Source: Candidatus Yanofskybacteria bacterium RIFCSPLOWO2_01_FULL_42_49
GTDB taxonomy: Bacteria > Patescibacteriota > Minisyncoccia > 2-02-FULL-40-12 > GWA2-44-9
Reading direction: 5' to 3'
Assembly: GCA_001795615.1 (NCBI GenBank)
Contig: MGKI01000014.1
Location: 5,380-69,379, forward strand
Length of the DNA stretch: 64,000 nt
The position numbers and the translations under genes are program-made. This document shows positions 4,389 to 31,886 of this stretch, in pieces (the first letter of the stretch is position 1; every line of letters begins with the position of its first letter). The notes below the pieces were generated by a model that saw only the letters and a program-made list of their open reading frames with translations, was not told the DNA's origin and ran no database searches.

Positions 4389-4564
4389 TAGTTCCTCCTT
4401 GCTACTTTTGGATCTTCCGACCCTAAATAGTAGCCACTTTTTTGAGTTGACAACGAACGCGAGTACTATATTAACATATTTATAAAATAATGCAAGAAGA
4501 GGGATGAGGCCATACAAAAATAGGCCTCATTTGAGGACAATGCACAATAGTAGTGGTGGAGCGA

Positions 4565-6010
4565 CTATTCCAATTTCTCTCTGCCCTTATGAGGTTTTTG
4601 TTGTTCTAACCACTCCTTGACCGCCATCGTCGCCCTGACATCATCTTCGTTATACTTCAGAATTTTTTTCAAAATGACATCGGATTTGTTTTCCAACCAC
4701 TCGTTATACCAAACCACTGACTCGGCCCCGCCCGCTTCGGGGTCATTCCATTTATAACCAACATACCCCGCAACATCTTTCAAGCTGTAGAAATAAAGGG
4801 GTAAAATTACGGACTCAACGGTTTGGTTATAAAGGTCTATCGTATTTTCTCTAAACTTTGAAACCAACGCCGACGGGGCGCCGTATTTCAATGCGAATTG
4901 GTCAAAAACAACTTTCTCGAGAAACGCGTAGTGATAAATTACGAAATCGTTCAAGTCCGCCAGAAAATCTAAAAAACTTCTCCAAATTTCCGACTCTTCG
5001 TCTTTATTGTTCGCAAAAAAGTGTCTGTATTCAACAGATCCCGACTTTGTATCTTTGATCAACACTCCGAGCAGATAATGAATATCTCTTGTCGGATCGC
5101 TCTCAATGTCAAAATAAATTTCATAACGGACTTTGGGGAAGTTACCCTTTTTCAATATCAACGGCTCTTGAGAAATCAGAGACTTGGCTTGATTATTAAA
5201 TCTCACCAACTTATCAAACGGCCAATCTTCGAGTTTTGCTTGAAGCTCATTTACATCAGCGTCTGCCACTTGGCCCACCGTCCTTATGCCGATGTCATAA
5301 AGCCGCCTCTGGTCGGATTGGCTTATCCTAAATATCAGCGACACATCATTGCATTCCCTCGCTCCCTCAACACACAATGAATACCATGGAGTTTTCTTAC
5401 ATCCAGACTTCAAAAACGGCGCAGGTTTTTCTCCCTCAAGAATTTTCTCTATCTGCTCTCTGGTAACATGAAACTGGCTGACAAAATCATCAACAAGAAA
5501 TGAACGGGTATTGCCGTCAGGATCAATAACGAAAGCTTCTTTTGGCCTTACCCCTTGCAACCTTTCCAGTATCAAGCTATAGAAAACGAGTTGGAATTTG
5601 TACTGATCGCCGATATCAAGGGAACTCTGAACATCATAAACGACATAGTGCCAGTCACCCAAATCCGACTTTCCCGCTTGAGCTTCAAGCAAATCCGGCA
5701 TCCCCACCCAATTCTCATGCATCAAAACGCCGTGATATATGTTTTTCCCTTGCTTCATTAATTCCAGTGTCGCCAGAAACGCTTCTTCAAGGTCGCGAAA
5801 CGACTCGGGTTTTATCTGTTCAAACTCTTTAAATTTTCTGATTGATTCGCTGGTATTGGCCAACTTGCCCTTGTACAGAAGCTCCAGTATCGGCGGAATG
5901 TGCTTTTTCTTTTTCGCATCAGCGTAAATGTCGTACCAAATCCAATGCGGACACTGGAAAAATTTGTAGAAATGTTCAGGGGTAAGAAATTTTTTATTCG
6001 CTTCGCTCAT
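4565..6010 (-). CDS. RecB-family nuclease, TM0106-like (N-terminal Cas4-like PD-(D/E)XK domain fused to C-terminal RNase-H-like exonuclease domain)
   Basis: The N-terminus (FFQCPHWIWYD ... YVVYDVQSSLDIGDQYKFQLVFYSLILERLQG) is paralogous to the adjacent Cas4-like gene. The C-terminus contains an RNase-H-fold exonuclease-like block (YFDIESDP...YHYAFLEK...YNEDDV). Confidence 0.6.
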   Translation of the reverse strand: MSEANKKFLTPEHFYKFFQCPHWIWYDIYADAKKKKHIPPILELLYKGKLANTSESIRKFKEFEQIKPESFRDLEEAFLATLELMKQGKNIYHGVLMHENWVGMPDLLEAQAGKSDLGDWHYVVYDVQSSLDIGDQYKFQLVFYSLILERLQGVRPKEAFVIDPDGNTRSFLVDDFVSQFHVTREQIEKILEGEKPAPFLKSGCKKTPWYSLCVEGARECNDVSLIFRISQSDQRRLYDIGIRTVGQVADADVNELQAKLEDWPFDKLVRFNNQAKSLISQEPLILKKGNFPKVRYEIYFDIESDPTRDIHYLLGVLIKDTKSGSVEYRHFFANNKDEESEIWRSFLDFLADLNDFVIYHYAFLEKVVFDQFALKYGAPSALVSKFRENTIDLYNQTVESVILPLYFYSLKDVAGYVGYKWNDPEAGGAESVVWYNEWLENKSDVILKKILKYNEDDVRATMAVKEWLEQQKPHKGREKLE

Positions 6011-6098: not shown

Positions 6099-6827
6099 TC
6101 AAACATTAAAATCCTCCGGCATGTATTGCTTTACCATACTAACATAATGGCAATGATCGCAATGCTTCTGCGCATTGCCGCTTGCCGAAGGAGGTTCATC
6201 TTGCCTTGCCAGCTCAACTGCCGCTTCAAAAGTCGGACCAACCCATTCAGTATTAATCTTGACCGGTCTTACTTCTTCCGTAAACTTCAAGACATTACCA
6301 AAACCAGTCTCCCCTTCTTTGACAACTTTATAAAAAACAAAGAAGGCTTCGGGATAAGTTTCATAACCCTTCTGTTTCAATATATAATTATAAACATCCA
6401 TTTGTTTCTGATAATCATCGTAAATAGTTATCTCTTTTGCGCCGGAAGATTTATAATCAATCACCCCCAAAGAACCGTCTTTAAACTCCAGAACATCATC
6501 AACTGCGCCGTACAATACGGCATTTAAAGCTTCGTCATGATAAACAACCCCTTTAAAATTATTCCGCCATTCAGAAAGTTCCTCGCCGTTAAATAACTTT
6601 GCATCCTTAATTCCGTGACTTTTCAGAATCGGAGGCAAAGTGCCTTTCTCTCGATATTTGTCGAATTCTTTTTTAACCAAATAGTCCACGGCGATAGAAA
6701 GCGTGAACGGATATCCAGGCGGCCTTTTCACTTTGTGATGCAAATCCAGCCAAAAACAGCGTGGACATTCCTGAAACAATTTCAACCCGCTTCGGGAAAT
6801 TTTGAGAGTATTCGAAAATTTTAGCAT
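6099..6827 (-). CDS. PD-(D/E)XK nuclease, Cas4/RecB-like (DUF83-type) with Cys cluster
   Basis: N-terminal FQECPRCFWLD and C-terminal CDHCHY cysteines; core GVIDYKSSGAKE...YDDYQKQMDVYNYIL matches PD-(D/E)XK motifs II/III and Q-h-x-x-Y. Confidence 0.6.
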   Translation of the reverse strand: MLKFSNTLKISRSGLKLFQECPRCFWLDLHHKVKRPPGYPFTLSIAVDYLVKKEFDKYREKGTLPPILKSHGIKDAKLFNGEELSEWRNNFKGVVYHDEALNAVLYGAVDDVLEFKDGSLGVIDYKSSGAKEITIYDDYQKQMDVYNYILKQKGYETYPEAFFVFYKVVKEGETGFGNVLKFTEEVRPVKINTEWVGPTFEAAVELARQDEPPSASGNAQKHCDHCHYVSMVKQYMPEDFNV

Positions 6828-6888: not shown

Positions 6889-7462
6889 ATGTATAACCTA
6901 AAGCCCTGTTCAGCGACTTGAGCGCAGCGGGTGCTTGAATAAAAAAACATTCTTCCTTCAAATCTCCATTTCCCTCTTTTGTGACCCGGAGTATGTTTAT
7001 GTGGAATTTATATTTACCAAGAGACCCTCGGATACCGCCCTCGGCAGTACCTTGCCATAAAATTCTATCCTTGTTGATAGACGAAATTTTTATAACTACC
7101 GACAACGGACAACCGCCCCGAAGCATGTCTTTCATGTCCGTACTGCTCAAGGTCGGTTCCCTCTTGTGAGATCCCCACTCGGGATGCGAATGAAAGTCGC
7201 CGATAACCGGAAAAATGGCCGGATATTTTTTGAAAAATTCTTTCATGTTTCTCTCGCTTAACTTACTTTGTTCTATTTCTTTATTACGGCGTTTTTTGGC
7301 AAGTTGCACGGCCACAGCGCTGGTTATAATAAAATTATTTCTGGTTCTGCTAGGCTTTCTGCCAAAAATATAGCCAAAACATTCTCTCTTAAATGTTTCC
7401 ACGGATGAAAGTACCATTGTAAAAAACGGCTCTTCCTCTATGTAGACAGTCGGCGGATCCAC
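6887..7462 (-). CDS. JAB/MPN (JAMM) domain metalloprotease-like protein
   Basis: JAMM motif E...HSHP...SSTD (GDFHSHPEWGSHKREPTLSSTD). A 10-bp-stem hairpin plus T-run directly after the stop. Confidence 0.6.
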   Translation of the reverse strand: MDPPTVYIEEEPFFTMVLSSVETFKRECFGYIFGRKPSRTRNNFIITSAVAVQLAKKRRNKEIEQSKLSERNMKEFFKKYPAIFPVIGDFHSHPEWGSHKREPTLSSTDMKDMLRGGCPLSVVIKISSINKDRILWQGTAEGGIRGSLGKYKFHINILRVTKEGNGDLKEECFFIQAPAALKSLNRALGYT

Positions 7463-10132: not shown

Positions 10133-10777
10133 CTATTTTTTATAAATTTCAGATGAAATTCTTTCTACCGCTTCAACTGGGTTGGCCGACTTAATAACGG
10201 GTCGGCCAATGACAAGAAGATCGGCCCCCAATTTAACTGCTTCCAAGGGAGTCACAGTACGGCCTTGGTCATCTTTTATATTGTACCATTTTGGGCGAAT
10301 CCCCGGAACAACTTTTAATCCCCTAAAATTCTTAAGATAGTTGAGTTCATGCGCAGAGCAGACCACGCCATCGAGTTTAGCTTTTTTAATATCCACGATT
10401 AACTTCAAAAATTCCTTTTTACTTACGGTATTTTTGGAAGTAAGGATGGTCACTCCAAGTATTTTGGCTCGACGAGCAGCCTTTTTAGACGCTTCCATCA
10501 TTTCCACTCCTCCGACAGCGTGAACAGTTATTAAGTCGGCCCCTGCTTTTTCCAAACGAGCAACGGAACGGGCCACCGTTGACGGAATGTCGTGCAGTTT
10601 AGCGTCAGCAAAAACCTTGCCGAATTTTTTGAGCTTTTGAATTATTTCTCCGCCTTCGACAGAAAATAGCAAGTCGTTGACCTTAAATCCCCAAACATTA
10701 TTTTTTAATTTTGCCGCAATTTTCAGAGCTTCTTTAACAGACACCCCATCAAGAGAAAGAATGATCTTACGCTCCAT
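10133..10777 (-). CDS. pyrF: orotidine 5'-phosphate decarboxylase
   Basis: [11 protein letters not shown]...KLHDIPSTV...VIGRP motifs typical of PyrF. ATG at rc 10775-10777 is preferred over the GTG at 10807, which would overlap secA. Confidence 0.8.
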
Positions 10778-13706
10778 GACACTTTTTATACTTTTTTCCG
10801 CTTCCACAGGGGCAGGGATCGTTCCTGCCTACGCTACCAAATTCATTATTCATGATTCCTGATTCATTTCTGTGCACAGGTTCATTTATAACGGACTGAT
10901 GTTTGTGAGGTCTGATGTCGGGCTTGCCCTCCATGGCTTCAGCGACGGAGGGTCTTTGTTCTTCCATCTTTGTCGGTCGCGGTTGCTGTATTAACGAAAC
11001 TTTAAAAATAATGTTAGCAACTTGAGCTTCAATGGCTGAGGTCAGCTGTTGGAACATTTTTTGCCCTTCAATTTTATATTCAACCAGAGGATCTCTTTGG
11101 CCGTAAGCGCGTAAGCGAACCGAATCGCGGAGATACTCCATCGCTTCAATGTGATCCATCCACAGTTCGTCTATCGTTCTTAAGAGGACCAACTTCTCCA
11201 ATTTTCTCATGTCTTCTTCGCCTACTTCTTTTTCTTTTTCCTCATATTTTTGATAAACGAATTCCAACACTTCTTTTTTTATCTCTTCCTTTTCTTTTGA
11301 TTCGTAATTCGTAATTCGTAATTCGTAATTCGTTAGAGCTTTAACACTTTCTTCAATTTCTTTAATATTCCACTCATAATTAGAGCCTTGGGTATGAAAA
11401 TCAACAATCTGGCTTATTGTATTCTCAATAAAGTTTTGAATTTTGAGTTTTGAATTTTGAGTTTGTTTAGAGTTTAGAGTTTCGAGTTTAGAGTTTACGA
11501 TTTCTCGCCTTAGCCGATAAATCGTCTCGCGGTGCTTATTCATCACATCATCGTACTCAAGCACATATTTTCTTATGTCAAAATTGTGGCCCTCTATCTT
11601 TGACTGCGCCTGTTCAATCGCGCGAGAAATAAATCTGTTCTCAACTACGTCATCATCACCGACACCAAGTGTCTCCATAATATTATGAAGTCGGTCGCCG
11701 CCAAACACCCTGATAACATCATCTTGAGTAGAAACGAAGAACTGCGATGAACCGGGATCGCCTTGCCGTCCGGCGCGGCCACGAAGCTGGTCATCTATCC
11801 GTCTTGCTTCGTGCCGTTCTGTGCCAATAACATGGAGACCTCCGACTTCGCGAACCTTGTTCGCTTCGTCGGGCAAAGCAGGATTGCCGCCAAGAATAAT
11901 ATCAACTCCGCGGCCGGCCATATTAGTTGCGACCGTTACCGCGCCAAGCCGTCCGGCTTGAGCGTGCAGTTCCGCTTCTTTTTCATGCTGTTTGGCGTTT
12001 AACACATTGTGAGGAATGCCGTCTCTCGAAAGCATCGCTGACAATAATTCGTTCTTTTCTATGGATACCGTACCAACAAGCACCGGCTGGCCTTTCTCGT
12101 GTTTTTCCTTTACTTCTCTGACTACCGCCCGAAATTTCCCCTCTTCATTTTTGTAAATCCTGTCTGGCATATCTTTTCTTACCAGCGGTTTATTCGTCGG
12201 CACTTCAACAACATCAAGACCATATACTTTGTGAAATTCTTCAGCAGATGTTCGGGCGGTACCGGTCATGCCGGCGAGTTTTTTGTATAAACGAAAATAG
12301 TTCTGGAATGTTATCGTGGCGAGAGTTCTGGATTCTTTTTGTATTTTCACTCCTTCTTTCGCCTCAACCGCCTGATGAAGCCCCTCGGACCAGCGCCGAC
12401 CCGGCATTAACCGTCCTGTAAATTCGTCGACAATTATTACTTCCTTTCCGCCGGAGGCGGATCCGCCTCCGGCGGAAACCACATAGTCGCGGTCTTTTTT
12501 AAATAAGACCTGCGCTTTAAGCGCCTGCTCAAGGTGATGGACATGCCTTACTCCTCCTTCGTTGTAAATGTTGCTTATACCCAGCGCTTTTTCCACTTTT
12601 TCTATCCCTTTCTCGGTAATAGACACCGCTTTTAATTTTTCGTCTAGATTATAGTCTTCGTTCTCAACAAGCCGCGGAGCGATACGGGCAAATGTTTCAT
12701 ATAATTTACCGGAGTCCTCGTCAGGCGCAGAAATTATAAGAGGAGTTCTTGCTTCGTCAATCAAAATACTGTCGACTTCATCAACTATTGCAAAGTTATG
12801 CATTTGTTGCAGGTCTTTAGTATTTTGAATTTCGGATTTTGAATTTGGAATTTGTTTAGGATTTAGGATTTGGGATTTAGGATTTTCGCTTCGCAATTGA
12901 ACCATTTGCGAAGCGTCATAGGCCATATTGTCGCGCAAATAGTCGAACCCCAACTCGTTGTTCGTACAGTATGTAATATCAGCCGCATAGGCCTCCTTGC
13001 GACCAACCGGCCTCAAAAACTCGTGAACAACCTTAAAACTTCCTAGGGTGTCTCTTGTCTCATCAAGTTTAGAGTTTTGCTTGCCCGCCGAAGCTTTAGC
13101 GAAGGCGGGGTCATTTGGTTTTTTGTTTTCATTGGAAATTGAAAATTGGAAATTGGAAATTCCACTTGCTTCTTTGTTTGTCTCGCTATGGCTTGGATCG
13201 TATAGATACGAGCTATCGTGATTGATACATCCCACAGTAAGTCCGAGCAAGTGGTAAATCTGTCCCATCCAGGCCGTATCGCGGCGGGATAGGTAGTCAT
13301 TCACGGTTACGATGTGAACTCCTTGTCCGGCAAGCGCGTTCAAATATGCCGGCAATGTGGCAACTAAAGTTTTCCCTTCACCAGTTTTCATTTCGGCAAT
13401 CTTGCCCTGATGCAAAACAATGCCGCCCATCAACTGAACGTCAAAATGCCGCTGGTTAAGCGTCCGTTTGGCCGCTTCGCGAACCGCCGCAAATGCTTCG
13501 GGCAGAATATCGTCCAACGACTCAATGGCTCCGTCATTGAGTCGTTCATTGAGTCGTTGACGAAATTCTCCCGTTTTCGCCTTTAACTCCTCGTCTGACA
13601 GTTTCTCAAATTCCGGCTCAAGCGAATTTATCCGGTCTATGACCGGCTGAAGCGACTTAATATACCTAGCATTAGCGTCCCCGAATACTTTACCTAGTAT
13701 TGACAT
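10767..13706 (-). CDS. secA: preprotein translocase ATPase SecA (expanded, 979 aa)
   Basis: Canonical SecA N-terminus, DEAD-like motor, and C-terminal zinc finger [14 protein letters not shown]. It contains several low-complexity and GC-palindrome insertions (see findings). Confidence 0.95.
11283..11508. repeat. tandem heptanucleotide repeats inside secA (AATTCGT x5; GAATTTTGAGTTTT/TTTAGAG-type array)
   Basis: Direct reading: ttcgtaattcgtaattcgtaattcgtaattcgt, and gaattttgagttttgaattttgagtttgtttagagtttagagtttcgagtttagagttta. These encode [15 protein letters not shown] and [22 protein letters not shown]. Confidence 0.65.
12447..12476. repeat. perfect 30-bp palindrome (tccgccggaggcggatccgcctccggcgga) inside secA, in frame
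   Basis: Verified identical to its own reverse complement. It encodes [10 protein letters not shown], inserted where E. coli SecA has KDG. A near-copy lies between genes at 22459-22486. Confidence 0.7.
12822..12893. repeat. tandem heptamer-type repeats inside secA (GAATTTG/GGATTTA array)
   Basis: tttgaatttcggattttgaatttggaatttgtttaggatttaggatttgggatttaggatttt encodes [23 protein letters not shown]. Confidence 0.6.
13055..13170. repeat. composite in-frame element in secA: AT-rich heptamer arm, GC-rich hairpin, AT-rich heptamer arm
   Basis: The first arm is agtttagagttttg. The GC-rich hairpin is cccgccgaagctttagcgaaggcgggg (13081-13108). The second arm is ggaaattgaaaattggaaattggaaattcc. Together they encode [34 protein letters not shown]. 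Confidence 0.6.
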
Positions 13707-14630: not shown

Positions 14631-15018
14631 ATTTCCTGGTTTTTCTTGAGAGATCCACTTTTTTGCTTTTAAACTTTTGGATTTGTCTTTGAAGTTCATT
14701 CTTTACATCAACAATCGCGTTGCGCAGATCCTCATGCTGGCAAGTTGCCCGCAAGAGTTGACCGCCCAGTTTTAAGTTAACCTCGGCATAGAATATTCTA
14801 CCGGAACGATGATGTTTTGACGGCAACCCGATTTCAACCCTTGCTTCCATTGGCTCGCCGAAGCCTTGTCGCTGACGCTCCATAGCTTTAGCGACGGAGC
14901 GGCGAAGGCGGCTAGGGCCTCCGCCTAAAAATTTTTCCAATCCCCCTATTTTGTCCTCAATAAAAACTTCCAAGGGCCCGTCAAGGGAAATATTTTTAGT
15001 CGTTATGATTAATTTCAT
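14629..15018 (-). CDS. hpf: ribosome hibernation promoting factor (HPF/RaiA short form) with an internal ~25-aa insertion
   Basis: N-terminus MKLIITTKNISLDGPLEVFIEDKIGGLEKF and the C-terminal half align to sigma-54 modulation/HPF proteins. The GC-rich segment 14868-14945 encodes the extra GGGPSRLRRSVAKAMERQRQGFGEP. Confidence 0.75.
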   Translation of the reverse strand: MKLIITTKNISLDGPLEVFIEDKIGGLEKFLGGGPSRLRRSVAKAMERQRQGFGEPMEARVEIGLPSKHHRSGRIFYAEVNLKLGGQLLRATCQHEDLRNAIVDVKNELQRQIQKFKSKKVDLSRKTRK

Positions 15019-18078: not shown

Positions 18079-18212
18079 AGCCCGCGAGAATTTAAAATTT
18101 AAAAATCAAAATGAAAAATTACAATGTAAAATCTAAAATTTTCTGATTTCTGACTATTTTTACATTTTGAACTGTCATTTTACACTTTGATATTTACATT
18201 TTACATTACAAC

Positions 18213-21002: not shown

Positions 21003-22379
21003 ATGAAGAAATTCTTACTATTTATATCCGACCTCGCCGTACTTTTCGGCTCTCTTTTATTAACCCTTTATTTGAGATACGGACAGACGTTTTCCGAAAA
21101 ACTGGAATTCCACCTTGCGCCTTTTTCATTAATTTTTGCCGTTTGGCTAATTGTTTTTTATATTGCCAACTTATACGAGCCGGCAACCCTGAGAAACAAC
21201 ATCCATTTTTATTCTGCCCTTCTTCAAGCAATCATTATCTCATCAGTAGTTTCCCTCACGCTCTTTTATCTGGTCCCTCTTTTTAAAATCGCCCCCAAAA
21301 CAAACTTTGCCATTTTTGCGGCAATTTTTACCGGATTAGAATTTAGCGCAAGATTCGGCTTTAACAGAATATTCGAGAAAAAATTCAAAAAAACCGTCCT
21401 CATTGTGGGACTAAACAGACAAGCATTCGAATTGGCTCAATTTATTAAAAACAATCCCCAACTTGGTTATGAACTTAAATGCGTTGTTGACCTCACACCC
21501 AACCAGCCGGATGATCCGCCAACTGGCGGAGAAGAGGAATTTAAAAAATTCGGTATAATTCAGGGCTTGGATAACCTAGAAAAACAAATCAAAGAAGAAA
21601 AAATAGACGCAATAGTGATAAGCCCGGAAGCATATCAAAATCCCGAAACAATAAACATTTTCTACAAGTCCCTCGAACAGAAAATTTCTTTCTTCAACTT
21701 GGCATCATTCTACGAACGGCTCACCGGCAAAGTGCCTCTGGGCGCCATAAACCAAATCTGGTTTTTGGAAAATCTAAGCGAGGGCAAAAAAAGAGGCTAC
21801 GAAATCGCCAAAAGGTTTTTTGATACGGTGTTCGCGGTTATAATCGGAATAGTTTCTTTAATTTTTTATCCCTTGATAGCGCTTGTAATTAAAATAAGCT
21901 CCCCGGGGCCAATATTTTATAGACAACGAAGGTTCGGACAAGCAGGCAAAACTTTTGAGATAGTAAAATTCAGAACAATGCGCCGGGATGCGGAAAAGGA
22001 AACGGGCGCCGTCTGGGCCGCAGAGAACGATCCCAGGATAACAAAAGTAGGCAACATTTTAAGAAAAACCCGCCTGGACGAGATCCCCCAGGTTTGGAAT
22101 ATATTGAAAGGCGAAATGTCTTTCGTGGGGCCTCGCGCCGAACGACCTGAATTTCACAATAAATTACAAAAAGATGTGCCGTTTTATGAAGAGAGGTATT
22201 TGATAAAACCAGGCCTTACCGGCTGGGCACAGATAAATTTCCACTACGGTTCGTCTGTAAGCGACGCCGCAGAAAAATTAAAATACGACCTATATTACAT
22301 AAAAAACAGGTCTCTTCTCTTAGATCTGGGCATCATCCTCAAAACTATTCGCATTGCCGCAGGACAAGCCGGGAGGTGA
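21003..22379 (+). CDS. polyprenyl-phosphate sugar phosphotransferase (WbaP/PssY-type initiating transferase)
   Basis: N-terminal TM block plus C-terminal bacterial sugar transferase domain (PGPIFYRQRRFG...KFRTM...DEIPQ...GEMSFVGPR). Confidence 0.85.
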   Translation: MKKFLLFISDLAVLFGSLLLTLYLRYGQTFSEKLEFHLAPFSLIFAVWLIVFYIANLYEPATLRNNIHFYSALLQAIIISSVVSLTLFYLVPLFKIAPKTNFAIFAAIFTGLEFSARFGFNRIFEKKFKKTVLIVGLNRQAFELAQFIKNNPQLGYELKCVVDLTPNQPDDPPTGGEEEFKKFGIIQGLDNLEKQIKEEKIDAIVISPEAYQNPETINIFYKSLEQKISFFNLASFYERLTGKVPLGAINQIWFLENLSEGKKRGYEIAKRFFDTVFAVIIGIVSLIFYPLIALVIKISSPGPIFYRQRRFGQAGKTFEIVKFRTMRRDAEKETGAVWAAENDPRITKVGNILRKTRLDEIPQVWNILKGEMSFVGPRAERPEFHNKLQKDVPFYEERYLIKPGLTGWAQINFHYGSSVSDAAEKLKYDLYYIKNRSLLLDLGIILKTIRIAAGQAGR

Positions 22380-22380
22380 A

Positions 22381-22560
22381 AATCGCGCCCTTAGCGTTCT
22401 AATCTCTAAATCCTAATTTCTAATCTCTAATAATCTCAAAATCCTAATTTTCAAAATTTCCGCCAGAGGCGGATCTGCCTCCGGCATGACAAAATGTTTT
22501 GGATTTTGATATTTGATATTGTTTAGAGTTTAGGGTTTAGAATTTAGGATTTTATCTTTA
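22381..22560. repeat. MITE-like intergenic element: AT-rich heptamer-repeat arms in inverted orientation flanking a GC-rich near-palindrome
   Basis: The arms are taatctctaaatcctaatttctaatctcta... and ...gtttagagtttagggtttagaatttaggatttt. They flank tccgccagaggcggatctgcctccggca (22459-22486), a 2-mismatch copy of the perfect palindrome inside secA. Confidence 0.5.
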
Positions 22561-23248
22561 ATCTCCACGGTAACCAAACCGCTTCCCAAATTATCTTGGA
22601 CGACATTTTTGACTGGCCTTCTCTACGCTCGCTAAATAATATGGGGTACTCGACGGCGCTACAACCAGCCTTGATAAGACGATATTTAAGTTCCACCAAA
22701 AAAGCATAGCCATCCGAACTTATTTCGTCCAAATTTATTTTCCTCAAAACATCCGCCCGATAAGCATTGAAGCCAGTCGTAGCATCCATAACAGGAAAAC
22801 CTAGAATTATTTTGACATAAAAATTGGCAAACCTACTTAATATTTGTCTAAAAAAACTCCAATTCTTAACTCCCCCGCCTTGAACATAACGGGAACCGAT
22901 AGAAATATCGTAATTATCCAGATCTTTGAGCAGGGCAGGTACAATGTTAAAATCATGCGAAAAATCGGCATCCATGGTCACAAGGAATTCGTAATTCTTA
23001 TCAAGAACCCATTTGAGTCCGTCTATACTTGAACGCCCGTAGCCAAAATCTTCCAACCGCTTTAGAATAAAGAGGTTATTATAATTCTGTCTTAATCCTT
23101 CAACCAATTCCTGCGTACCGTCATTTGAATTATCGTCAACAACCAAAACTGAAATATCCGGCATCAAGCCAAAAATCGCCGGAATTAGTTTCTCAAGATT
23201 TTCCTTTTCGTTAAGAGTTGGTATTAGAATGATTGATCGGTCATGCAT
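22544..23248 (-). CDS. family 2 glycosyltransferase (polyprenyl-phosphate sugar synthase, DPM1-like)
   Basis: IILIPTLNEKENL...VVDDNSNDGT...DADFSHD motifs (GT2, DxD); start at the internal ATG (MHDRS) to avoid overlapping the flippase gene. Confidence 0.75.
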   Translation of the reverse strand: MHDRSIILIPTLNEKENLEKLIPAIFGLMPDISVLVVDDNSNDGTQELVEGLRQNYNNLFILKRLEDFGYGRSSIDGLKWVLDKNYEFLVTMDADFSHDFNIVPALLKDLDNYDISIGSRYVQGGGVKNWSFFRQILSRFANFYVKIILGFPVMDATTGFNAYRADVLRKINLDEISSDGYAFLVELKYRLIKAGCSAVEYPILFSERREGQSKMSSKIIWEAVWLPWRLKIKS

Positions 23249-23277
23249 TGTTCTTGTGCCTGAAATTGGTTCAGCGG

Positions 23278-24588
23278 TTATTTTAATTTTTTTATTAAGT
23301 AAGTGAATGAGATAATATGACTTACCGAAAACCATATCGTAACCATTACGACGCTTCCCCACAAGCCATAATTTTTAATAAGCCACAACCCGAGAGGAAC
23401 ACCACCGGCCAGAATTAATGAATTGATTATAATAGAAACCTTGACCTTATTGATCGCACGCCACATCGGACCCAAACCAACTCCTATGCCGAACAAGGAA
23501 CCGTAGGCGATAAGTCCGAAAATATATTTAATGCTGGGGAGATAGCTTTCACCGTAAAGAATTCTAAACACAACAGGCGAGACAATCGCCACCCCAAAAG
23601 ACAATACGGCTGAAAGAGCCAAAGAATACAGGGATATTTTTTTAAAATTTCTGTACAGTAATTCCCTATCCTGTATCTGAATTTTTGGAAACTCAACATT
23701 TAAAAGTATTGAAATCGGGCCAAGCAAACTTAGAGCAAGATTAGTATAGCCGAAAGCCAGTTTAAAAAACGACACCTCGGAAGAAGTAACATAGATGCCC
23801 GTGAGAATAACCGGCAGAGCCATGTATACATTACCCATATTCCTGTCCAAAGCCACCCAGAAAGTAAACCCAAAATATTTCTTGATATCTACTGTTTTGG
23901 CAATGTGAACAAGACGGCCCAAGCCGGGAAACAACGGTTCACTTTGAGCAAACTTAATGAAAAAGACGGAGCAGGCGATAAAAATAATGACGGCCCCCGC
24001 CAGTTGGCCGCCGATTGCGCCTAAAACGCCGAAACCCAAAAGAACAAAACTTAAAGATAACGCATATCTTAACGACTGATCAGACAAAAGCAAAGCGGCA
24101 AGAGACTTAACCCTTCCGGTAACCTGAAAAGATGAATACGTGAGAGTGAATAAAAACGAGGATAAAATAGCGGCAACCACCACAATGGCGGCATAAATTC
24201 CAATTAAAGAATCACCGTACAGCCTGTCGGCTATAGTCGGTAAAAAGGCAGAAACGGCAACAACCACCAAGGCAGCAAAGAAAGTTATTTTTAGCATGAA
24301 TCCCAGGATATTTTCCACCTCCGTCCCATCCCCCTTAGCGTAAGCCCTGCCAAGCAAACTGGACACCGCCTCTTGTATACCCATGCCCAATATCAGACTG
24401 GTCATACTGGCCATGCCTATTGCAAGCGAATAAACGCCGAAAAGTTCCGGCTGAAGCAACCGGGCAATAATAATCCCAATACCAGCTTGAATTATATTTC
24501 CGGCAAAACTCCCCGCCTGAAGAGTGGCAACATTGCGTATGAACAGGTGCTGTTTTAAACTCCAAATTTTGTTTTTAATTTTGTTCAA
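23278..24588 (-). CDS. oligosaccharide flippase (Wzx/RfbX polysaccharide biosynthesis family)
   Basis: 436 aa, ~12 predicted TM helices; typical N-terminal pattern for the polysaccharide biosynthesis protein family. Confidence 0.7.
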   Translation of the reverse strand: MNKIKNKIWSLKQHLFIRNVATLQAGSFAGNIIQAGIGIIIARLLQPELFGVYSLAIGMASMTSLILGMGIQEAVSSLLGRAYAKGDGTEVENILGFMLKITFFAALVVVAVSAFLPTIADRLYGDSLIGIYAAIVVVAAILSSFLFTLTYSSFQVTGRVKSLAALLLSDQSLRYALSLSFVLLGFGVLGAIGGQLAGAVIIFIACSVFFIKFAQSEPLFPGLGRLVHIAKTVDIKKYFGFTFWVALDRNMGNVYMALPVILTGIYVTSSEVSFFKLAFGYTNLALSLLGPISILLNVEFPKIQIQDRELLYRNFKKISLYSLALSAVLSFGVAIVSPVVFRILYGESYLPSIKYIFGLIAYGSLFGIGVGLGPMWRAINKVKVSIIINSLILAGGVPLGLWLIKNYGLWGSVVMVTIWFSVSHIISFTYLIKKLK

Positions 24589-30784: not shown

Positions 30785-31798
30785 ATGGCGAAAACAAAAA
30801 ACAAGACCGCTTTAATTTTCGGTATCACCGGTCAAGACGGTTCGTATTTAGCTGAAATCCTTTTGAAAAAGGGATATGTTGTGCATGGCGTCGTGAGACG
30901 GGCTTCAACTTTTAACACAGCAAGAATAAATCATCTCTATCAGGATCCACACAATAAAAGCAGGAAACTTTTTCTGCACCACGGAGACCTTGCCGACGCT
31001 GGCACAATAAGAAAAATAATTAATAAAGTTAAACCGGAAGAGGTCTACAACCTTGCCGCACAATCGCATGTTAAAGTCTCGTTTGAAATTCCTGAATACA
31101 CAATGGACATTACCGGTAACGGGGCGTTGAGAATTCTTGAAGCACTAAGGGATTTCCAAACAGAAACAGGGGGAAAAGTTAAATTCTACCAAGCATCATC
31201 TTCGGAAATGTTTGGCGCAGCTCCCCCGCCCCAAAATGAAAAGACGCCATTCATACCCCAAAGCCCCTACGGCGCAGCCAAGGTTTTCGCTCACAATATG
31301 ACGAACCTCTACCGCGATGCTTATGGACTTTTTGCTGTAAGTGGAATACTTTTCAATCACGAATCACCACGACGAGGGGAAACATTCGTAACACGAAAAA
31401 TCACCCGTGGCATTGCCAGAATAAAAGCCGGTTTGGACAAAAAATTATACCTCGGCAACCTGGACGCTAAGAGAGATTGGGGACATTCCCCTGAATTCTG
31501 CGAAGCCATGTGGCTAATGATGCAACAGCCCAAGCCAAATGACTTCGTTATCGGCACAGGCGAGACGCACACTGTGAGAGAATTCGTTGAACTGGCTTTT
31601 AAAGAAGCCGGTTTGGGTAGTTGGAAAAAATATGTTGAAATTGATCCTCAATACTACAGGCCAGCTGAAGTAAATATTTTAGTCGCCGATACCAGAAAGG
31701 CAAAAAAAGTATTGAAGTGGCAACCAAAAACCAAATTCAAAGACCTTGTGAAAATAATGGTCTGGAATGACATTAACGAATTTAAAGTTAAAAATTAA
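30785..31798 (+). CDS. gmd: GDP-mannose 4,6-dehydratase
   Basis: [33 protein letters not shown] (YxxxK), and the characteristic [12 protein letters not shown] loop. Confidence 0.9.
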
Positions 31799-31886
31799 AA
31801 GAGTAAAGTTAAAAGTCAAGGTTTTAATTTAAAGATTTTAAAAACTTATAATTTAAAACTCTAATTTTACACTTTCTATTTTAAAT

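Follow-up and report, generated by a model that had tools for sequence, protein, structure and literature searches.

A 30-nt palindrome in secA of Candidatus Yanofskybacteria and a family of double mini-hairpins in many bacterial phyla

IS-derived MITEs, or miniature inverted-repeat transposable elements, combine terminal inverted repeats with a target-site duplication and measure about 50–500 bp. The mitochondria of yeasts and Magnusiomyces carry GC clusters and "byp" elements, which are GC-rich palindromic inserts; TAG-type sequences flank many GC clusters, and ribosomes skip byps. The small dispersed repeats (SDRs) of cyanobacteria are very small (about 20–27 nt), putatively mobile sequences with hairpin potential, for which we know of neither a transposase of their own nor a mechanism; Elhai et al. 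reportedly found in 2008 that they occur inside other repeats and together with heptamers repeated in tandem. A study of cyanobacterial repeats gives SDRs a length of 21–27 nt, reports them only in Nostocaceae, and describes HIP1 (GCGATCGC) as a GATC-centred, GC-rich cyanobacterial palindrome that abounds both inside and outside coding sequence and shows phylum-level conservation (PMC5861425). Coding palindromes are also described in the mitochondria of Nematomorpha (PMC6649704). Repetitive extragenic palindromes (REPs) are short GC-rich hairpins that form clusters and inverted doublets (REPINs), which are thought to be mobilized in trans by a Y1/HUH enzyme on single-stranded DNA without target duplication (PMC3116915). 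Lastly, Rickettsia palindromic elements (RPEs) are about 100–150 bp long, fall into ten families found only in Rickettsia, and are translated into a conserved peptide some tens of residues long; their inserts are compatible with protein folding (PMC10969869). Here, we analyzed a stretch of 64,000 nt from contig MGKI01000014.1 of Candidatus Yanofskybacteria bacterium RIFCSPLOWO2_01_FULL_42_49 (hereafter the window), in which a preliminary description had noted a 30-bp palindrome in the secA gene and likened it to RPEs. We consider it rather probable that this palindrome is a copy of a dispersed miniature selfish insertion element, tolerated by SecA as a surface loop.

The secA palindrome and its insertion site

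The palindrome, TCCGCCGGAGGCGGATCCGCCTCCGGCGGA, was confirmed as perfect and in frame with secA, and 100 shuffles gave no match. It is in fact longer than first described, reaching 34 nt as TT + core + AA, with 17-nt arms and no spacer. In a window of about 40% GC, it forms the strongest stem (17 bp) among 37 GC-rich islands, the others reaching at most 7 bp, and TCCGCCGGAGGCGGATCCGCCTCCGGCGGA remains single in the window even with three mismatches tolerated. As RNA, the palindrome folds at −32 to −33 kcal/mol (z = −6.5 and −7.3). Its parts and its host gene are as follows.

12447–12476: 30-nt core in secA; the minus-strand reading gives a decapeptide, SecA residues 411–420
12447–12461: left mini-hairpin of the core, TCCGCC-GGA-GGCGGA
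12462–12476: right mini-hairpin of the core, TCCGCC-TCC-GGCGGA
12445–12478: full perfect palindrome, arms 100% complementary
10767–13706, minus strand: secA host gene, 979 aa, assigned by PDB 1tf2 (E = 8e-238) and Pfam

The window SecA protein is 100% identical to SecA of Candidatus Yanofskybacteria bacterium RIFCSPHIGHO2_01 (Parcubacteria, candidate phyla radiation or CPR). At the DNA level, secA with the palindrome was found in at least four independent assemblies (ENA ERZ27254842, JGI 3300002105, NCBI GCA_001794105.1 and JGI 3300025323), which differ from the window by 0–1 nt over 2940 nt. The recovery of one allele from these separate data sets excludes that the insert is a chimera or an adapter sequence.

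The insert lies in the preprotein cross-linking domain of SecA (PF01043, residues 333–448). Bacillus subtilis SecA reads DYVVEDG-QVVIVD at this site, which leaves the window protein with a net gain of eight residues. The preliminary description had given KDG as the E. coli state here, and KDG is the state of the CPR relatives; about 100 of the 120 closest SecA proteins (63–79% identical) have K-D/N-G at the site. The neighbor-joining (NJ) sister of the window protein, P0004, has KDN (codons gtg aaa gat aac gag), and the flanking secA DNA is about 75% identical to that of P0004, the nearest relative of the window gene. The secA element is therefore a real, lineage-specific, in-frame insertion of 30 nt, with the frame kept, at a K-D-G beta-turn. 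The surface loop that had been expected was recovered in part: in an AlphaFold model the insert is a coil between predicted beta-strands 408–411 and 423–426, a placement weakly supported by a poor model (mean pLDDT of 62, and below 50 in the insert region).

A dispersed family of double mini-hairpins

The window also contains a second copy, TCCGCCAGAGGCGGATCTGCCTCCGGCATGA, at 22459–22489 on the plus strand, in intergenic DNA. The preliminary description had reported a diverged copy at this place with two mismatches, which is correct for the first 27 nt (25/27 identical); over 30 nt there are five, and the 3' end reads GGCATGA vs GGCGGA in secA. Nor is it a mere duplicate. Its subtype, ...GGATCTGCC-TCN-GGCATGA (TCTGCC-TCN-GGCATGA), is also present in seven loci of other organisms (L048, L059, L067, L091, L093, L108 and L117), and because the two window copies belong to different subtypes, each common to distant organisms, they are not simply duplicates of each other.

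We searched contigs of one genome per species with a pattern covering both window copies, GCCNNAGGCGGATCNGCCTCNGGC (24 nt, 20 fixed bases). It matched at least 120 loci in species-representative genomes, with about one chance match expected according to our own estimate, which assumes uniform base composition. Bases left free by the pattern are conserved as well, with TCC before it in 96–99% of copies and GGA after it in about 90%, followed by weaker T-rich left and A-rich right flanks (56–79%) and no conservation past about 36 nt. The same 858 kb of loci held 19 further units or variant doublets, compared with 0–1 in shuffles. Three unrelated loci (L015, L022 and L118) carry the identical 30-mer of the secA copy. 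The family is thus not genome-specific and recurs near-unchanged in many phyla.

These copies also revise the structure of the element, which had been taken to be a 30-bp palindrome. It consists of two tandem 15-nt units of the form TC-N-GCC/NNN/GGC-N'-GA, each with a 6-bp stem and a 3-nt loop, and the consensus reads (tt)TCCGCC-AAA-GGCGGA directly followed by TCCGCC-TCT-GGCGGA(aaa). Positions 15 and 25 of the right unit, both left free by the search pattern, covary (C-G in 80 copies, A-T in 27, T-A in 10 and G-C in one) and are paired in 118 of the 123 distinct copies. By contrast, pairs 0/25 and 10/15, required by a single long hairpin, are formed in only 83 and 81 of the 123. Variant doublets near the seeds likewise keep the stem of each unit (CCCGCC...GGCGGG, CCAGCC...GGCTGG). 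In folding, the TCA/TGA variant yielded two hairpins and symmetric variants one long hairpin. The secA copy is a special case, as its loops GGA and TCC are also complementary. The covariation shows that the conserved unit is a pair of tandem mini-hairpins and not a 30-bp palindrome.

About half of the hosts listed belong to CPR lineages. All hosts among the matches listed are metagenome-assembled genomes (MAGs) or single-cell genomes, and the GC content of the loci ranges from 0.31 to 0.70.

CPR hosts: Kaiser-, Lipton-, Doudna-, Morani-, Uhr-, Falkow-, Gottesman-, Giovannoni-, Campbell- and Portnoybacteria, among others
Non-CPR hosts, first group: Omnitrophota (at least nine), Kiritimatiellae, Lentisphaeria, Planctomycetes including Scalindua, Elusimicrobia, Ignavibacteria/Bacteroidota
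Non-CPR hosts, second group: Deltaproteobacteria/Thermodesulfobacteriota, Chloroflexota, Firestone-, Stahl- and KSB1 bacteria

BLAST searches with the 36-nt consensus gave no match in 7.3 Gb of plasmids, 2.3 Gb of phage genomes and 28 Gb of Escherichia coli genomes. A scan of viral contigs gave only three matches, so phage carriage is not a main feature of the family. No Rfam (15) family was matched by seven of the loci or by the window, and neither the element sequence nor its three frame peptides were found in the literature searched, by string and by topic. Hence, this family of tiny double-hairpin elements has apparently been undescribed until now, and its breadth across phyla is unusual and would surprise specialists.

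A host range made up entirely of MAGs and single-cell genomes, with no match in plasmids, phages or E. coli, is what an assembly, adapter or linker artefact could produce; the central GGATCC of the palindrome is a BamHI site and, together with a GGGS-like peptide, recalls synthetic linkers. We nevertheless consider such an origin practically negligible. The same secA allele stands in four independent assemblies and the secA open reading frame (ORF) runs seamlessly through both sides of the insert. Copies were found in Illumina MAGs, long-read MAGs and a KSB1 single-cell genome from many studies. Variable loops, compensatory stem changes and the frame bias presented below (p = 5e-14) also speak against an artefact.

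The surroundings of the intergenic copy were as first described, Pfam and TRF bearing out its position between a sugar transferase gene and a glycosyltransferase family 2 (GT2) gene and its flanks of AT-rich heptamers.

21003–22379, plus strand: bacterial sugar transferase (Bac_transf) gene, PF02397, E = 1.7e-66, convergent with the GT2 gene
22399–22458, plus strand: left AT-rich heptamer array, units such as CTAAATC and CTAATTT; TRF 22399–22450, period 7/14
22459–22473, plus strand: left unit of the intergenic copy, TCCGCC-AGA-GGCGGA
22474–22489, plus strand: right unit of the intergenic copy, TCTGCC-TCC-GGCA-T-GA
22490–22552, plus strand: right AT-rich heptamer array, GTTTAGA/GTTTAGG-like, inverted complement of the left arm; 22521–22552 with period 7
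22544–23362, minus strand: GT2 gene, PF00535, E = 4e-23

The two arrays are the arms of a composite hairpin of about 145 nt around the copy (DNA fold of −30.1 kcal/mol, z = −6.45), which is thus a core element centred in a lineage-specific inverted array of AT-rich heptamers. It has the top flank-complementarity score among 123 copies. Across the family, complementary flanks are only modestly enriched (9 of 123 copies vs 2.4 expected), and the idea that larger palindromes generally surround the copies was rejected, since only about 7% are so placed. The end of the right arm overlaps the 3' end (stop side) of the GT2 ORF at 22544–22552, so the array supplies the last codons of the GT2 gene. Similar heptamer arrays are found in intergenic DNA at 18089–18207 and 31779–31885. 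We rejected a role as intrinsic terminator, as the T-run comes before and the A-run after the hairpins, the reverse of the required polarity, and no terminator-like site was predicted in 22200–22750.

Other copies keep company with further repeats. One locus (L077, 3760–4060) has three doublets within 300 nt of intergenic DNA, a BIME-like cluster in which one doublet has a 1-nt stem insertion and another is the CCAGCC...GGCTGG variant. In Kiritimatiellae STD1_155, the element forms the 3' end of a composite repeat of about 185 nt, built from several other small hairpin modules that include 'gtcatcctgaacg...' and 'gagattcctc..cgctcggaatgaca'; these composites lie in L003 (~4480–4700), L008 (~4500–4800 and ~6300–6620) and L071 (~7150–7370). 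Copies in L067 and L108 are bordered by modules resembling these (ggattcccgc...gcgggaatgaca), and some copies lie in the loops of 'ggattcccgcg...cgcgggaat' hairpins. Nesting in other repeats, observed in L003, L008, L067 and L108, suggests that environmental bacteria share a broader collection of such small palindromic modules, nested in one another. Several non-coding copies are located about 20–60 nt from tRNA genes (L011, 6930–7082; L116, 2777–2933; L063, 350–643; L066, 37–163), those of L011 and L116 being followed by a tRNA-like fragment that was not called by ARAGORN. An overlap between element and tRNA gene was rejected, since the L011 and L116 elements are about 60 nt away and not inside.

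Insertion sites, reading frame and possible mobility

The element occupies the SecA turn in two distant lineages. A second SecA, P0116, which is 64% identical to the window protein, belongs to another clade and shares its aquifer sample of origin with one assembly of the window genome, has the exact family-consensus 30-mer at the same V/K boundary (gta gtt TCCGCCAAAGGCGGATCCGCCTCTGGCGGA aaa gac ggt), where 33 nt stand ahead of an intact KDG. The two secA elements are 28/30 identical, both differences falling within one loop. As secA flanks are only about 75% identical even to P0004, this points to separate events or to strong constraint. The preliminary description had allowed that the peptide might simply be shared by SecA orthologs of close relatives, with no copies elsewhere; instead, only the distant P0116 has it, probably by a separate event, and copies elsewhere are abundant. 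Two metagenome scans recovered neither the empty nor the filled secA allele and, having missed the filled one too, are uninformative.

In other lineages, the same SecA turn (the site equivalent to 12447–12476) carries a different perfect palindrome of 16 nt, aaTCCGTCAGCTGACGGAgg, encoding N/S-PSADGG with a net gain of four residues. It was located in secA of L122, L131, L132 and L133, from relatives P0003, P0011, P0094 and P0057. Four lineages agree in every base of a 20-nt stretch that starts at ccg and ends after two bases of the second Gly codon, although their neighboring synonymous sites differ, and the PSADGG state is scattered over at least 10 separate places in an NJ tree of 118 SecA proteins. 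On this sequence comparison, the PSADGG palindrome would reflect either recurrent insertion or a DNA-level constraint at one hot spot. We also considered whether PSADGG represents a single TCCGCC unit and rejected this, its DNA being a different palindrome, TCCGTCAGCTGACGGA.

The recurrence of aaTCCGTCAGCTGACGGAgg, with identical DNA in at least 10 scattered SecA lineages, indicates that the site does gather palindromes. The secA copy could then have grown locally at a mutational hot spot where the replicating strand switched template, through inverted duplication or quasi-palindrome correction, and its perfect symmetry, unlike the family consensus, would agree with this. We find such an origin very unlikely, given that the identical 30-mer occurs in three unrelated loci, that the family occupies at least 120, that a second copy lies 10 kb away and that the empty site (gta aag gat gga gaa) cannot template TCCGCC...GGCGGA. 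Although the family cannot have originated by template switching, this process may have symmetrized the loops of the secA copy (GGA/TCC) after insertion.

Two other kinds of in-frame repeat were observed in secA. A second family of small GC-rich, hairpin-like repeats has three window copies, every one in frame within genes on the minus strand; its segments are missing from orthologs, and the HPF protein has 129 aa here vs 99–111 aa in relatives. In addition, secA holds five in-frame tandem arrays of AT-rich heptamers that encode peptides, some of them common to close relatives and others lineage-specific.

10914–10952, minus strand: second repeat family in secA, 13-residue peptide, DNA TCCGTCGCTGAAGCCATGGAGGGCAAG
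13077–13109, minus strand: second repeat family in secA, 11-residue peptide, DNA GCCTTCGCTAAAGCTTCGGCGGGCAAG
14851–14925, minus strand: second repeat family in the S30AE/HPF gene, peptide SRLRRSVAKAMERQRQGFGEP, DNA TCCGTCGCTAAAGCTATGGAGCGTCAG
13110–13160, 12804–12890, 11433–11495, 11295–11330 and 10842–10865, minus strand: heptamer arrays in secA

Returning to the double mini-hairpin, about half of 125 copies lie within long ORFs. The symmetric core is 30 nt long and free of stops in all six frames, so an ORF stays open at any insertion phase. Nonetheless, among the 49 stop-free copies whose open span reaches 200 codons or more, 42 share one frame (binomial p = 5e-14), TCC GCC nnn GGC GGA TCC GCC TCn GGC GGA, with the peptide S-A-x-G-G-S-A-S-G-G (S-A-R/G-G-G-S-A-F-G-G on the other strand), and TGA-containing subtypes are enriched outside long ORFs. 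The frame bias and the location of the TGA subtypes point to translation followed by purifying selection on the peptide, from which we infer that the insert is probably translated as a flexible Ser/Ala/Gly decapeptide. Translational bypassing by a GGA-to-GGA hop was set aside by reasoning, since there is no stop to skip and the frame bias fits translation.

A peptide that resembles a flexible linker, with some copies in natural linker regions (L100), raises the possibility of convergent selection for Gly/Ser/Ala linkers at the protein level, the DNA likeness being incidental. This seems to us extremely improbable: synonymous positions are fixed across a host GC range of 0.31–0.70, copies also occur in non-coding DNA and in other frames, and the covariation tracks DNA or RNA pairing and not codons.

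The host genes, mostly recognized by eye from translations, are varied.

Host genes, first group: SecA, DnaG, PyrG, two AspRS (at different sites), PheT (two copies), UvrB, ValRS
Host genes, second group: Mfd/RecG-like helicase (one intact and one decayed copy), RpoC, MurA, HsdR, sorting domains of the type IX secretion system (T9SS)

The AspRS of L017 shows a clean 10-residue gap, at a loop or turn, against Thermus thermophilus. When aligned with solved homologs, the PyrG insert corresponds to a gap of about 10 residues at a loop or turn and the MurA insert to an 8-residue gap at a G-rich turn; the UvrB fragment gave no alignment spanning the insert. In three Ignavibacteria loci (L041, L055 and L090), the element lies at the same place in an apparent T9SS C-terminal sorting domain, in the context ...F-[SAxGGSASGx]-...SG(V/L/I)Y(F/L)Y..., with Por_Secre_tail detected by Pfam for L041 only. 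This trio may be one old insertion spread by domain duplication.

Insertion sites are scattered over different genes, different AspRS sites, intergenic clusters and other repeats. No target-site duplication was seen in the sites compared, which were the P0116 secA at the DNA level and the L017 AspRS, the latter known only as a 10-residue protein gap and as filled-site DNA (ctg atg, 30 nt, gaa gac). We propose that the elements are selfish, non-autonomous DNA, which would be copied or pasted by a trans-acting activity recognizing the mini-hairpins. Recognition would most plausibly take place on single-stranded DNA at replication forks, by an HUH/Y1-type enzyme (IS200/IS605 or RAYT-like), a guess by analogy with REP/RAYT and IS200/IS605, which likewise leave no duplication. 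Within genes, copies would persist only at sites that a flexible Ser/Ala/Gly loop does not harm, selection having presumably removed those in other frames or at buried sites, and the secA insert would be tolerated since it extends a surface turn.

Alternatively, the double mini-hairpin could be a selected functional signal, such as a site bound or processed by a widely conserved protein, or an RNA or single-stranded DNA structure that pauses polymerases or ribosomes, spread by horizontal transfer or short-patch conversion. Its stems, unlike its loops, are near-invariant across phyla with genome GC of 0.31–0.70 and are each preserved by compensatory changes; the RNA form of the secA hairpin is very stable (−33 kcal/mol), and two distant SecA genes bear the element at one codon boundary. 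On the other hand, its positions are scattered over genes, AspRS sites, intergenic clusters and other repeats, it is missing from most orthologs, and the frame bias points to selection on the peptide and not on placement. There was also no Rfam family match, and the invariance of the stems is partly built into a search for intact stems. We regard a functional signal as unlikely.

Several points nonetheless count against selfish insertion as the explanation. The near-identity of the stems across phyla is the chief unexplained fact; a conventional transposase co-evolves with its ends, which makes such identity hard to explain, and it fits a promiscuous or host-universal activity and, equally, functional constraint. 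Copies were selected for intact stems, so their age and decay cannot be judged, and the taxon labels of some co-assembled MAGs may be unreliable, although many of the host genomes are named ones obtained in different studies and on different platforms (Omnitrophota, Kiritimatiellae, Scalindua, Ignavibacteria, Elusimicrobia and the KSB1 single-cell genome). Furthermore, two copies in 64 kb seems a low density, no transposase-like domain was found among the ten window ORFs scanned, and all members of the P0116 cluster retain the insert, with no filled/empty polymorphism among them. Finally, translation was deduced from the frame bias and not from peptides. A bolder proposal, which we advance only tentatively and hold slightly more in doubt than in favor, is that the 30-nt double mini-hairpin is the smallest known mobile DNA to cross phyla, written into the genomes, essential genes included, of CPR, Omnitrophota, PVC, FCB and other uncultivated bacteria by a very widespread or host-universal activity.

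If these 30-nt elements are mobile, they would set a new lower size limit for phylum-crossing mobile DNA and imply a mobilizing activity as yet unsought in the least-known part of the bacterial tree. If that activity is as widespread as proposed, surface loops of core proteins would have been reshaped across much of the bacterial domain, and the heptamer arrays and other small hairpin inserts of secA would share the same hidden layer of genome dynamics. Some of the lineage-specific insertions that have been puzzling in housekeeping proteins of CPR bacteria are accounted for by the elements, and inserts of this kind have consequences for gene calling, alignment, phylogeny and structure prediction; the spurious small ORFs PPKADPPLAE and RQRRIRLWR stem from other frames of the element. 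They also provide a natural insertion scan of where SecA, RpoC and aminoacyl-tRNA synthetases tolerate a flexible loop of ten residues, and an easily searched motif that is a possible marker of horizontal exchange among co-occurring groundwater and sediment organisms.

Comparison with described elements

The likeness to RPEs put forward in the preliminary description stands as far as behavior is concerned. Like RPEs, the element is palindromic, found in frame in unrelated housekeeping genes, at a turn or loop in SecA, is read through, and also occurs in intergenic DNA. It is not an RPE, however, as it is 30 nt long (34–36 nt with the weak T/A flanks), consists of two mini-hairpins with 6-bp stems and 3-nt loops, and resides in many phyla, in CPR and other non-Rickettsia hosts. 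This separation by host, size and architecture relies on published descriptions of RPEs.

The bacterial mobile elements offer closer parallels in structure. With REPINs, the family shares an inverted doublet of two adjacent mini-hairpins (loops NNA and TCN), clustering and the lack of duplication. REPs are extragenic and species-specific, with hundreds of copies, a 5' GTAG and a RAYT gene, whereas the present element is often intragenic, its sequence is common to many phyla and its T-rich and A-rich flanks lack GTAG; no RAYT (Y1) domain was found among the ten window ORFs scanned, and there are two copies in 64 kb. Unlike MITEs, it makes a clean insertion of 30 nt (AspRS) or 33 nt (P0116 secA) without duplication. 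SDRs, compared here by their description, recall the element in their very small size and perhaps in nesting and heptamer association: the second window copy and several CPR copies lie in heptamer arrays and a few copies are nested in other repeats, with complementary flanks only modestly enriched across the family. The element differs in its 30 nt and its non-cyanobacterial hosts, and a cross-phylum range or a dominant translated frame is not known for SDRs.

Mitochondrial inserts resemble the element in being short GC-rich palindromes inside protein-coding genes of AT-rich genomes, whereas its hosts are bacterial and not organellar and its frame bias points to translation. Lastly, HIP1 is an 8-mer that substitution bias or selection has made over-represented, within one phylum only, while the element described here is a 30-nt indel.

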